NCBI RefSeq assembly: GCF_058153355.1
Contig: NZ_CM177019.1
DNA length: 64,000 nt
Direction: 5' to 3' (one strand)
Positions within the stretch are counted from its first letter, which is position 1. Each line of letters begins with the position of its first letter. The notes below the pieces were generated by a model, which was not told where the DNA came from, did no database searches, and saw only the letters and a list, made by a program, of their open reading frames with translations. Position numbers and translations under genes: made by a program. Shown here piece by piece: positions 3,160 through 57,787 of this stretch.

Positions 3160-3245
3160 CTCGTTTATCAGGCCTACATAGTCTGTGCAATGTATTGAAT
3201 TTGCACGATTTTGTAGGCTGGATAAGGCGTTCACGCCGCATCCGG
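3160..3245. repeat. REP/BIME element (gcctgat..atcaggcctac and gccggatgcggcgtgaacgccttatccagcctac palindromic units)
   Basis: Sequence matches the Enterobacterial repetitive extragenic palindrome consensus (Y and Z-type units in opposite orientation). Confidence 0.7.
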
Positions 3246-6806: not shown

Positions 6807-8200
<1,394 letters not shown>

Positions 8201-52706: not shown

Positions 52707-52780
52707 GCGGGCGTAGTTCAATGGTAGAACGAGAGCTTCCCAAGCTCTATACGAGGGTTCGATTCCCTTCGTCCGCTCCA
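52707..52780 (+). tRNA. glyU: tRNA-Gly (anticodon CCC)
   Basis: GCGGGCGTAGTTCAATGGTAGAACGAGAGCTTCCCAAGCTCTATACGAGGGTTCGATTCCCTTCGTCCGCTCCA: cloverleaf, anticodon loop cuuCCCaag, T-loop GGTTCGATTCC, encoded CCA. Confidence 0.95.
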
Positions 52781-52944: not shown

Positions 52945-54309
52945 ATGCTGCTTTCAGACCTTGCCATCAGGCGCGCGAAGCCGAAAGAAAAGGCTTATAC
53001 ACTCAATGACGGTAACGGGCTTTCGTTGCTCATTGAGCCGAACGGTTCGAAAGGGTGGCGACTGCGCTACAGGTTTGCAGGAAAGCCCAAAATGTTGTCG
53101 TTGGGTGTGTACCCTGATGTGTCTCTGTCTGATGCCAGGGCGGCAAGGGATGAGGCTAAAAGGCTTCTTGCTGGTGGTATAAATCCAAGTGAGGCCAGAA
53201 AAGCCCAAAAGCGAGAACAGGCGAGCAAATTTGGCAATACTTTTGAGGGTATCGCTCGCGAATGGTACGAAAAGCGGATCGACAGGTGGTCATCGTCATA
53301 CGCCGAGGAAATGATCGAGACGTTTGAAAAAGACGTTTTTCCGTACATTGGCGGTAGGCCGATCGCAGAAATTAAGCCGATGGAATTGCTGGCGGTTCTT
53401 TCCCGTCTTAATGACCGTGGTGCGACTGAAAAATTGCGTAAGGTTCGCCAGCGATGTGGCGAGGTGTTCCGGTACGCAATCATCACCGGACGCGCCGAAT
53501 ATAATCCAGCCCCTGACCTGGTGAGCGCATTTGCTCCACATAAAAAAGAGCATTACGCCTGTTTGAAGGCCGATGAACTGCCGGAATTTTTCCGCGTTTT
53601 TAATACGTACACCGGAAGCCAGATCGTCAAACTGGCAATGCGGCTATTAATTCTGACAGGTGTCAGACCCGGGGAATTACGGCAGGCAGAATGGCGGGAG
53701 ATCGATTTTGATAATCGTTTGTGGGAAGTGCCTAAAGAACGAATGAAGATGCGCCGTCCGCATTGCGTGCCATTACCAGAACAGGCGATAAAAATACTGG
53801 AGCAGTTAAAAAACATGACAGGTCAGTATCAGTTTATTTTCCCCGGTCGTATTCACCACAGTAAACCAATGAGTGAAATGGCAATGAATGTGCTCATTCG
53901 TCGTATTGGCTACGCCGGGCGCGTTACTGGTCATGGATTCCGGCACACCATGAGCACCATTTTGCATGAGCAGGGCTATAACACCGCGTGGATAGAGACA
54001 CAGCTTGCGCACGCCGATAAAAACTCAATTCGTGGCACATACAACCATGCGCAATATCTGGATGGCAGACGCGAAATGCTCCAGTGGTATGCCGACTATA
54101 TGGATTCGCTCGAGCATGGCGGAAATGTGGTGCATGGTGAGTTCGGAAAATGCGGGGGACTGGTTGAGTATACAGTAGTAGACTTTGAGCGACTAAAAAC
54201 GGCTGTGTCTAGGGTCGCTCCTGAAAACCCGTACACCTCTGCGGGCTGGCACAGCCACTATGGTAGAGGGCGCGAGGTGACGCGTGATCGATATTGCCGA
54301 ATTACTTAA
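52945..54309 (+). CDS. P4-family (tRNA-targeting) tyrosine integrase, about 454 aa
   Basis: Start MLLSDLAIRRAKPKEKAYTLNDGNGLSLLIEPNGSKGWRLRYRFAGKPKML is the classic P4-type Int N-terminus (arm-binding domain). Catalytic R..HxxR..Y region present (GHGFRHTMSTILHEQG; RGTYNHAQY). Lies 165 bp after the tRNA 3' end. Confidence 0.9.
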   Translation: MLLSDLAIRRAKPKEKAYTLNDGNGLSLLIEPNGSKGWRLRYRFAGKPKMLSLGVYPDVSLSDARAARDEAKRLLAGGINPSEARKAQKREQASKFGNTFEGIAREWYEKRIDRWSSSYAEEMIETFEKDVFPYIGGRPIAEIKPMELLAVLSRLNDRGATEKLRKVRQRCGEVFRYAIITGRAEYNPAPDLVSAFAPHKKEHYACLKADELPEFFRVFNTYTGSQIVKLAMRLLILTGVRPGELRQAEWREIDFDNRLWEVPKERMKMRRPHCVPLPEQAIKILEQLKNMTGQYQFIFPGRIHHSKPMSEMAMNVLIRRIGYAGRVTGHGFRHTMSTILHEQGYNTAWIETQLAHADKNSIRGTYNHAQYLDGRREMLQWYADYMDSLEHGGNVVHGEFGKCGGLVEYTVVDFERLKTAVSRVAPENPYTSAGWHSHYGRGREVTRDRYCRIT

Positions 54310-55563: not shown

Positions 55564-56364
55564 ATGAAATTTCCAAAAACGCCCATACAGGGGCAGGGCT
55601 TCGTTCGGCTTGAAAACCAGAATCTGCAAAATTTTGGCAAAATTATCCCGGTTATTTCCGGCGTTATTGGCGGGCGTGAAACCAATATTGTTAGCGCCAG
55701 AGCGTTGCATAAGGCGCTCGGGGTAGGCCGTGATTTCACAACCTGGATTAAAGTACGCATTGATGAGTACGGATTTAAAAAGGGCGTGGATTTTGAATTC
55801 GTAGAAAATTTGACCTCCCCCAATCCGGTGAGCGCAAAATCTCGCCAACGTATAGAGCACGACTACCTGAGCACTATCAACATGGCGAAAGAACTGGCGA
55901 TGGTCGAACGCACCGAACAGGGCCGCGCCGTTCGTCAGTATTTCATCAAATGCGAGGAGGAGCTACACAAGGTAGCGCCTGTGCGTTCCGCAGCGTTACG
56001 CCGGGAACTGAAAGCCCGTATCACTGTTGCCAGCTACTTTAAGCCAATGTGCGCCGCGCTGGAGGCGTACCGGGCAGAACTGGGTAAAAACACTCTACAG
56101 CACCACTACACCACGGAAGCTAATATGCTGGCGCGTATCGTGCTGGGTGGCATGACTGCAAAACAGTGGGCACTGGCGAACGGCATCACAAGCGAACCAC
56201 GCGACCACATGAGCACGTTGCAGCTTGAGCACCTTTCTTACCTTGAGCAGAGCAATATCACGCTGATTGAGTTAGGCCAGGACTACCACCAGCGGAAAGC
56301 TGAATTAATTCGTCTTTCGCAGCGCTGGTTAGCCCGTCGCATGGAGGAAAACAACCATGTGTAA
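55564..56364 (+). CDS. AntA/AntB-type antirepressor-like protein (266 aa)
   Basis: N-terminal segment SARALHKALGVGRDFTTWIKVRIDEYGFKKGVDFEF fits the AntA domain consensus (..L...L.....F..WIK.RI.EYGF..G.DF). Confidence 0.7.
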   Translation: MKFPKTPIQGQGFVRLENQNLQNFGKIIPVISGVIGGRETNIVSARALHKALGVGRDFTTWIKVRIDEYGFKKGVDFEFVENLTSPNPVSAKSRQRIEHDYLSTINMAKELAMVERTEQGRAVRQYFIKCEEELHKVAPVRSAALRRELKARITVASYFKPMCAALEAYRAELGKNTLQHHYTTEANMLARIVLGGMTAKQWALANGITSEPRDHMSTLQLEHLSYLEQSNITLIELGQDYHQRKAELIRLSQRWLARRMEENNHV

Positions 56365-57018
56365 CGCTCTGACCGTTACAAAAAGAGAAAGCGCCCCGTT
56401 GCCGGAGCGCCTTTGTGAACGAATAGCCTACTGCGCCATATTGCTTACTGTCTACGAGGCAGATTATAGCGTTGTGGTCGCACAGAGTGAAGGCACTGAT
56501 CACCGTTACTACAGCACGCCAGAAATGCAGAATATTTTGCTGCAAAATGCCGCTGGCCACGCTGTCCGGAAAGCAAAAAATTTTGCTGGTGGCGCGACTG
56601 ATACGATTTTTTCTGGTCGCCAGGTGCTGATCAATCTGATGTCTGATTTCGTTCTGGATAAAACAAAGGCGACCGCAGAGGGCCACCAGTGGGAAAGCTA
56701 CACACTTGAACACATCGCCAACAATGCCAGATTTGCGGCTGGTGGGCAATGTGATCAGTGTGTTGGCTTGCTGGTGGGCTGTTCGTCTGGTTCAGTCCGT
56801 TGCCATGCATGGAGTGAACGCATTTTCCAGGAATACTCTTTGAGGTACTTCTCAAGAGCAAACGCACACGGGGCGAATCTCTCCGGTTCATGTTCGTTTA
56901 CCGCATTTTTGCGTTGTTTTTTCCTGGATGAGGATAATTTCTTTAATGATTTGTCAGTCATCGTATATACCTGTAACCCTGTGCGCCACAGTTCACTGCA
57001 CCACGGCGCTGATGGTGA

Positions 57019-57198
57019 TTACTCTGATTCTTTGGCCTTGCGGCGCTGGCGGCGTTTGATCTCACCTTCAAGTGCCGAAACGATAAATTGTCCAGTGCTT
57101 TCGCCTTCTTCCTTTAAACTTTCTACAGCGTCAGCTATTGCATGGGGTACTCGTGCCTCAAGTTTTTTTGATTTTCCATTAACTGCTTTCGTTGCCAT
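57019..57198 (-). CDS. ribbon-helix-helix (Arc/MetJ/CopG-like) small DNA-binding protein, 59 aa
   Basis: MATKAVNGKSKKLEARVPHAIADAVESLKEEGESTGQFIVSALEGEIKRRQRRKAKESE: beta-strand K-L-E-A-R-V followed by two helices, classic RHH layout; AAGGGA RBS; divergent from the rightward operon. Confidence 0.65.
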   Translation of the reverse strand: MATKAVNGKSKKLEARVPHAIADAVESLKEEGESTGQFIVSALEGEIKRRQRRKAKESE

Positions 57199-57218
57199 AT
57201 CTGATTCCCTTGTTATTA

Positions 57219-57299
57219 GGTGGCTGACAGTATACACACAAGAAAATGGAAAAACACTATTGACGTGGCTGACACCTGTTACTAGTATAGTGGCTGACA
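57219..57299. promoter_or_regulatory. divergent control region: three direct repeats GTGGCTGACA (57220, 57265, 57290) overlapping a sigma70-like promoter TTGACG-17-TAGTAT reading rightward
   Basis: Motifs read directly; repeat 2 abuts the -35 hexamer (57260-57265) and repeat 3 lies 2 nt after the -10 (57283-57288). Confidence 0.55.
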
Positions 57300-57787
57300 C
57301 CTTTATTAAGGTAATCGATGAAAAGACAAAGCCCGCAGGCGCTACCAACACCAACGGGCTTCTAACCACCAACGATAGAAAGCGTATCGAGGTAGCTATG
57401 TTAAATCATACCACACACCCGCAAGGGCGGGACTCGCACAACCTGAATAAAGCGGGGGTAAAAAACCAGTTGATCGCCACTGCCAGCCAGGGCTATGATT
57501 TATCTGCACCAGCAAAATCTGGTGCCCGGATTGGCGTCCTGAAAATTCTGAAGGCGACATATGACGCGCCGAGCGTCTTTTTTTATGTCGTAGGTCTGAC
57601 TCACCCATTTTTTGGGCGTTGGTGTATAATCCAGCGCCTTTGTCAATCAATGGTGGCTCAGGCGGGGGCTTCTTCGGAAGCGCCGGTATCCTTCAGAGCC
57701 GGTTACGCCAACCCTGTCTGGGCTACCACCAGCGAAATTGGCGTTTCCGGTGGTAGCGTAACCTGCTATCTGAAGGAGGCTGCCGAC

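Follow-up and report, generated by a model that had tools for sequence, protein, structure and literature searches.

The interval 57300-57787 of the 64,000-nt stretch of DNA analysed here (the window) is the RNA immunity region of a P4-like satellite that is integrated at tRNA-Gly(CCC). With a probability that we put at roughly 0.85, it carries an antisense immunity RNA of the C4/CI type, accompanied by an isrK/seqA partner and controlling the ribosome-binding site of the icd/kil gene. In P1, P7 and P4, and in many prophages and satellites besides, it is antisense RNAs of this type that determine superinfection immunity. The feature is already known in this sense, being an ordinary member of a well-described family with Rfam models for both RNAs. 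Both motifs were listed by Weinberg et al. 2010 (PMC2864571), and PMC4825925 and PMC10111431 already equate isrK with P4 seqA and C4 with P4 CI; the latter, a 2023 survey with C4 and isrK matches in PICI-type satellites, also summarises the CI/seqA/eta/kil logic. The additional value of our analysis for annotation is modest and concerns a protein family (Phage_ASH) that lies over the RNA module, putative operator repeats that co-vary, and the recognition segments a' and b', which appear to reassort.

C4/CI-type antisense RNA

A scan with the Rfam covariance models matched the C4 antisense RNA family (RF01695) on the + strand only, with 79.9 bits against a gathering score of 45 (E = 1e-14), and the match spans the full-length model (1-87). 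The RNA and its parts are given below.

57646-57733, + strand: C4/CI-type antisense RNA (RF01695 match, fold, covariation in 59 sequences)
57651-57667 with 57712-57728, + strand: outer stem of 17 bp, GGUGGCUCAGGCGGGG pairing with CCCUGUCUGGGCUACCA
57668-57681, + strand: hairpin 1, GCUUC-UUCG-GAAGC
57682-57703, + strand: hairpin 2, with the loop b' UCCUUCAGA at 57689-57697
57705-57711, + strand: a' ACGCCAA in the single-stranded junction (whole junction 8 nt)
57729-57731, + strand: 3' CCA, unpaired, directly after the outer stem

The long outer stem thus encloses the UUCG hairpin and a second hairpin, followed by the single-stranded junction. It was the UUCG-tetraloop hairpin that the initial annotation had singled out as part of a candidate P4 CI-like small RNA, with structure prediction as one of its proposed checks. 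The hairpin is present as hairpin 1 of C4, and the 88-nt segment 57646-57733 folds with -46.4 kcal/mol (z = -4.79), a value that none of 200 shuffles reached; its minimum-free-energy fold is the structure of the Rfam model. Both the fold and the Rfam score are far beyond chance. The resemblance to P4 is also borne out, as the C4 model gives 74.9 bits over P4 CI, the isrK model gives 68.8 bits here and 60.8 over P4 seqA, and the next gene is a Kil homologue. The pairing that had been proposed for the flanks of the hairpin, ggtggctcaggcgg with ccggttacgcc, has to be replaced by the 17-bp outer stem, where the true partner of GGUGGCUCAGGCGGGG is CCCUGUCUGGGCUACCA; ccggttacgcc is made up of the 3' arm of the second hairpin and the single-stranded recognition junction.

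On aligning 59 sequences, compensatory changes were found in 10 of the 19 C4 pairs, the invariant columns of this alignment being uninformative as they were fixed by the search pattern. Such changes speak for both hairpin 1 and the outer stem, with 26-35 double changes per pair in hairpin 1. In the minimum-free-energy fold of the entire 505-nt leader the C4 fold is broken up, and this global structure was set aside. A reading of the segment as a riboswitch or attenuator was rejected since C4 is without a U-tract, matches a family of antisense RNAs that act in trans, and finds exact targets on either side. The mature RNA of the P1/P4 type is about 77-79 nt long and is freed from a longer transcript by RNase P; the sole hint of such processing at C4 is the unpaired CCA at 57729-57731.

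isrK/seqA-type RNA with its own promoter and terminator

The isrK family (RF01394) is matched on the + strand upstream of C4, at the score given above against a gathering score of 50. A sub-threshold match of 32 bits to c4-a1b1 (RF03163) overlaps it on the same strand.

57470-57499, + strand: PLE-like promoter TTGATC-18-TATGAT, ending 6 nt ahead of the isrK start
57506-57583, + strand: isrK/P4-seqA-type RNA (RF01394), with promoter and terminator
57563-57584, + strand: intrinsic terminator of isrK
57625-57630, + strand: TATAAT within the 62-nt isrK-C4 spacer, without a good -35

The -35/-10 pair stands at the identical position upstream of isrK in 48 distinct relatives, even where the surroundings differ, and P4 is among them with TTGCCT-18-TATAGT. 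This bears on the initial annotation, which had described a leader of about 490 nt running from a promoter with its -10 at 57288 to the first operon gene at an AAGGAGG-ATG. Both ends of the description stand: a promoter-like TTGACG-17-TAGTAT is present at 57260-57288, and AAGGAGG at 57773-57779 precedes the ATG at 57788. The single uninterrupted unit does not, because the conserved promoter at 57470-57499 and the terminator at 57563-57584 bound an isrK-type RNA, so that 57300-57787 has a separate small-RNA gene inside it. The immunity transcript is most likely driven from 57470-57499 and not from the promoter at 57288. The TATAAT that had been placed at about 57615 lies in fact at 57625-57630. 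This hexamer is retained in many enteric spacer variants despite varying flanks and is missing from the wider family; possibly it serves C4 as a second promoter.

Complementary target sites and their covariation

A search for seq-like complementary targets, also among the checks proposed at first, returned exact sites on both sides of C4.

57531-57537, + strand: a1 TTGGCGT, in the loop of isrK hairpin 2
57547-57554, + strand: b1 TCTGAAGG, in the linker of isrK
57738-57744, + strand: a2 TTGGCGT, downstream target
57769-57777, + strand: b2 TCTGAAGGA, overlapping the Shine-Dalgarno AAGGAGG at 57773-57779
57788-57976, + strand: Icd/Kil-like gene, 62 aa, first regulated cistron

The b' loop and the a' junction are exactly complementary over 7-9 nt to both site pairs (57531-57554 and 57738-57777). 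The pattern TTGGCGT-N-CTGAAGG occurs exactly 3 times in the 64 kb (a1b1, a2b2 and the complement in C4) as against 0.02 expected. The downstream pair leads directly into the start region of icd, AAGGAGG-N8-ATG at 57773-57790. The immunity specificity of the element would be defined by a' and b', that is ACGCCAA and UCCUUCAGA.

A pattern scan of public viral contigs gave 120 loci, which were reduced to 66 distinct loop/junction combinations (specificity types). In nearly all of the 66, the loop and the junction have perfect complements of 7-11 nt at fixed offsets both upstream and downstream. The upstream complements lie about 16 nt apart, while the downstream ones, counted from a reference point near the C4 3' end, are at about 13-20 nt (a2) and about 40-55 nt (b2). 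Duplexes between the loop and the downstream site have a mean of -12.2 kcal/mol for cognate pairs vs -7.3 for non-cognate pairs across the 66 types; the cognate partner has a median rank of 0 of 66 and is typically the best flank. In 49 of 60 types b2 lies over a Shine-Dalgarno, and the start codon of an ORF of at least 35 aa comes no more than about 14 nt later; this ORF is Icd/Kil-like in the enteric types and of another kind in the remaining ones. At the level of sequence, such pairing and covariation are the signatures of an antisense RNA that pairs in trans or in cis and whose specificity co-evolves with its targets. Also, (nearly) identical C4 loops are found with different junctions and the reverse (L003 vs L016, L004 vs L052). 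Because the same loops occur with different junctions and vice versa, b' and a' appear to reassort independently, each with its targets.

Proposed mode of action

By analogy with P4, P1 and Gifsy-1, from which the processing, the termination or the translation block, and the override are all carried over, the region may work as follows. Transcription would start at about 57506 from the promoter at 57470-57499, and most transcripts would halt at the isrK terminator to give the isrK/seqA RNA of about 78 nt. Those that read through would carry C4/CI (57646-57733), which is expected to be trimmed to a stable RNA of about 80 nt as in P1 and P4. Its b' loop and a' junction could then pair with a2/b2 on longer transcripts, whereby the icd/kil Shine-Dalgarno would be covered and icd translation blocked; the downstream replication operon would in turn be switched off through lost translational coupling and premature termination. 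The identical pair a1/b1 in isrK may serve as an upstream target or as a competitor for the C4 RNA.

The alternative that survives best is positive control of the Gifsy-1 IsrK type, in which a1/b1 pair in cis with a'/b' of C4 in a silent form and isrK, acting in trans, opens this form and activates the downstream gene, C4 not being a trans repressor. The same two Rfam elements are found here in the same order, and isrK has its own promoter and terminator. In Gifsy-1, pairing of IsrK G28/G31 with C162/C159 of the downstream C4-like RNA, corresponding to a1:a', was verified by compensatory mutations, and IsrK activates in trans rather than being a passive target, a downstream translation fusion going up more than 100-fold (PMC4825925). 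The positions of G28/G31 fall in a1 here. Hfq binding and trans activity of isrK are reported only for the Salmonella homologue (PMC4825925). On the other side, the family-wide position of a2/b2 over a Shine-Dalgarno is a hallmark of occlusion by C4, in trans or in cis, as in P1 and P4, and the gene context (kil/icd, primase) is P4-like and not Gifsy-like. We therefore regard IsrK-type control as rather doubtful for this locus, though the two models are not mutually exclusive. Because the Gifsy-1 isrK RNA is a trans activator, the sign of the isrK effect here is uncertain: by these analogies isrK could be a decoy or activator as in Gifsy-1, or a co-target, and the repression could be mainly translational, as in P1, or act mainly through termination, as in P4.

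Satellite context and the IS insertions

The element reads, in order, tRNA-Gly, a P4-type integrase, AlpA, an AntA-domain protein, three minus-strand ORFs including YlcI/YnfO, and the RNA module with icd. Downstream of icd are two small ORFs, of 69 aa (interrupted by IS66) and 66 aa, and then the genes for a DUF4222 protein and a D5_N primase.

52707-52780: tRNA-Gly(CCC), integration site of the P4-like satellite
55564-56364: AntA-domain gene, upstream of and outside the module
58000-60468, + strand: IS66-family insertion, with the 8-bp target duplication CCTTAACC at 57992-57999 and 60469-60476
61149-62189: D5_N primase gene, truncated, followed by an IS110-family transposase gene at 62248-63423

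The 62-aa product of icd matches NCBIfam NF033153 (phage_ICD_like) with 69.3 bits and is 33% identical to P4 Kil (E = 4e-7), which itself matches NF033153 at 76 bits. A tblastn search of Icd against a phage collection gave a single match and was uninformative. The chromosomal genes to either side match E. coli at 95-99%, and related segments are found in about 2000 of 5426 complete E. coli genomes. Rfam also placed the int-alpA RNA (RF02996) at 54202-54269 on the + strand, at the 3' end of the integrase gene (45.5 bits vs a gathering score of 35.8), a motif seen also in L016; in the chromosomal part it placed naRNA4 at 8030-8107 (81.3 bits, both strands) and ES036 at 3170-3212 (43.2 bits).

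The ends of the IS66-family insertion were located through the GTAAGCG terminal motif, as the inverted-repeat search missed them. It begins 25 nt after icd, splits the ORF starting at 57969 and lies between the module and the genes for DUF4222 and the D5_N primase. The insertion is recent because its target duplication is perfect. IS66 after icd and IS110 within the primase gene have broken the regulated operon and disabled the satellite. For this element the module may be a relic. In the stronger form of this alternative, the module is an inactive remnant with an intact sequence that controls nothing. Loss of the whole module has occurred in a relative at the same tRNA-Gly site, E. coli OkiPb01676 (L122, 18126-19058), where an in-frame deletion takes the isrK promoter, isrK, C4, the targets and the icd N-terminus. 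C4 and isrK were absent from an Rfam scan of that locus even at E = 1, and a divergent version of the module there was rejected, as the module is deleted. The PGAP call in L122 is a 310-aa 'Icd-like protein' that is largely an antisense shadow of the YlcI region. In the window, however, the promoter, the terminator, the stems and the three exact complementary sites are all intact, the C4 segment is 100% identical to that of 4 other public contigs (L002, L058, L078, L112), the insertion is young, and a co-resident element that shares the specificity could still be a trans target of the RNAs. An inactive relic is thus an unlikely description of the module.

An open reading frame across the module

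The first reading of this DNA had found no convincing ORF before icd. This does not hold, as the icd frame is free of stops back to 56357 and has an ATG with a GAGG at 57398.

57398-57976, + strand: eta-like open frame of 192 codons, ATG at 57398, GAGG at 57390-57393
57650, + strand: nested in-frame ATG at the C4 5' end, the position of the P4 'cI ORF' and of the Gifsy-1 orf45 start

The eta-like frame crosses isrK, C4 and the targets and terminates as icd. Its translation is matched by Phage_ASH (Pfam PF10554) with 115.3 and 123.9 bits, over residues 34-140. These correspond to 57497-57817, which is exactly the stretch of isrK, spacer, C4 and targets. In P4 Eta (L123, 869-1465, minus strand), Phage_ASH likewise coincides with the RNA stretch. 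Frame 0 is without a stop over 240 nt or more upstream in almost all enteric relatives, as against an average of 4.2 and 7.2 stops in frames 1 and 2, these counts being taken from sequences pre-selected for an open frame 0. RefSeq/PGAP records of the relatives annotate such ORFs as 'ash family protein' or as over-long 'Icd-like' ORFs and do not list the ncRNA. For annotation this means that the RNAs are missed and ash or Icd-like ORFs are called in their place.

We examined the diversity at the three codon positions in 17 relatives. It is 0.20/0.22/0.20 upstream, 0.08/0.09/0.08 in isrK and 0.17/0.16/0.18 in C4, in contrast to the strongly periodic 0.10/0.225/0.08 of the icd region. Amino-acid selection on the Phage_ASH frame was therefore not seen in these 17 relatives, where the leader is without the three-base periodicity of diversity that icd has, and the eta-like frame is not under such selection because codon periodicity is lacking in the leader. 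This fits a case in which the act of translation rather than its product would be selected, in agreement with the account of P4 eta in PMC10111431 (citing Forti 1999). For the part upstream of 57207, the open frame is probably a shadow ORF in codon alignment with the YlcI gene on the minus strand and with the ORF at 56755-56961, because its third codon positions coincide with those of the two; a real 539-aa gene from 56357 coupled to antA was rejected for this upstream part.

That the region is simply protein-coding, an Ash family/Eta-like protein fused in frame to Icd with incidental RNA features, is very improbable in spite of the frame open over 56357-57976, its start site, its conservation in the pre-selected relatives, the Phage_ASH scores and the PGAP calls, since codon-position diversity is flat over the leader and periodic in icd, Phage_ASH coincides with the RNA module, the compensatory pair changes and the co-variation of the targets are RNA signatures, and the frame upstream of 57207 is a shadow of minus-strand genes. 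Translation as in P4 eta may well occur without replacing the RNA function. The initial annotation had held that translation of the region would speak against an RNA, and this does not follow: in P4, one and the same DNA yields the CI/seqA RNA and belongs to the eta ORF, which is translated (PMC10111431, citing Forti 1999).

Upstream promoter and the divergent YlcI/YnfO gene

Upstream of the eta-like start lie a second promoter-like site, repeats and a divergent gene.

57019-57207, - strand: YlcI/YnfO-family (ribbon-helix-helix-like) gene, divergent
57220-57229, 57265-57274 and 57290-57299, + strand: three direct repeats GTGGCTGACA, bracketing the -35 and -10
57260-57288, + strand: promoter-like site TTGACG-17-TAGTAT

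The divergent gene matches NCBIfam NF041551 with 64.2 bits vs a cut-off of 30 and is annotated likewise in E. coli relatives. The repeats keep their positions in relatives and change their sequence, reading GTGGGCCACA in L030 and GTGCGATTCA in L069. Because the positions are kept yet the repeat sequence varies, they are candidate operators; judged from sequence, the pattern suggests that they serve the divergent repressor and that repressor/operator pairs of differing specificity exist. The YlcI/YnfO product is accordingly a candidate repressor of the upstream promoter. A 15-codon ORF, MKRQSPQALPTPTGF, is present at 57318-57365 just past this promoter, with AAGG 6 nt upstream, out of the eta-like frame.

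We propose that 57260-57288 plays the role of the regulated upstream promoter of P4. In the account of P4, translation of eta from that promoter prevents CI-dependent premature termination (PMC10111431, citing Forti 1999). Transcripts from the operator-flanked promoter here would include the eta-like start at 57398, and ribosomes crossing isrK, C4 and the targets could prevent the pairings and so override immunity. A satellite subfamily with two immunity layers, namely the C4/isrK RNAs and a YlcI/YnfO-type repressor gating an eta-like translation that erases the RNA immunity, is a tentative extension, which we hold to be possible but clearly short of even odds. If it is true, 'Phage_ASH' would be a translated spacer and not a functional protein domain.

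Comparison with known systems

The closest system is P4. The C4 model lies over CI and the isrK model over seqA in the same order as here, with a promoter directly before the isrK/seqA element, and two-part sites complementary to the loop and the junction are present on both sides, the downstream copy lying over the kil Shine-Dalgarno; a2/b2 is thus the counterpart of P4 seqC, as it is of a2/b2 in P1. In the P4 sequence the eta start overlaps the orf88 stop, and eta crosses seqA, CI and seqC and terminates as kil. Kil is therefore nested in frame inside a long Phage_ASH-matching ORF, the Eta/Kil layout being the same. Also shared are an AlpA homologue, a primase of the P4/D5 type downstream and, at a tRNA gene, a P4-like integrase. 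The two differ in that nucleotide identity is only about 72%, over C4 and the targets, and in the a'/b' specificity, P4 using GTGAGAA and TTCACAGG. Also, the isrK-C4 spacer is 62 nt here vs about 107 nt in P4, and the place of orf88/vis, which in P4 reads into eta, is taken by the divergent YlcI/YnfO gene with three operator-like repeats. An AntA-like gene upstream and an operon interrupted by IS elements are further differences of the present element.

The immI operon of P1/P7 (c4-icd-ant) gave the Rfam C4 family its name through the P1/P7 c4 RNA. There too, a'/b' are matched by a1/b1 on the upstream side and by a2/b2 at the ribosome-binding site of icd (for the roles in P1 see PMC8201110), and the first cistron is Icd-like. 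Here, however, icd is not followed by an antirepressor gene; replication genes lie downstream and the AntA-domain gene lies upstream.

In Gifsy-1 (isrK-orf45/STnc1160-anrP), isrK likewise has a promoter and terminator of its own, and downstream of it comes a processed C4-like RNA with shared complementary sequences; the in-frame AUG at the C4 5' end corresponds to 57650 here. The spacer in Gifsy-1 is apparently shorter by about 40 nt, and the frame there ends after 45 codons, with coupling to an antirepressor gene, whereas here it continues into icd.
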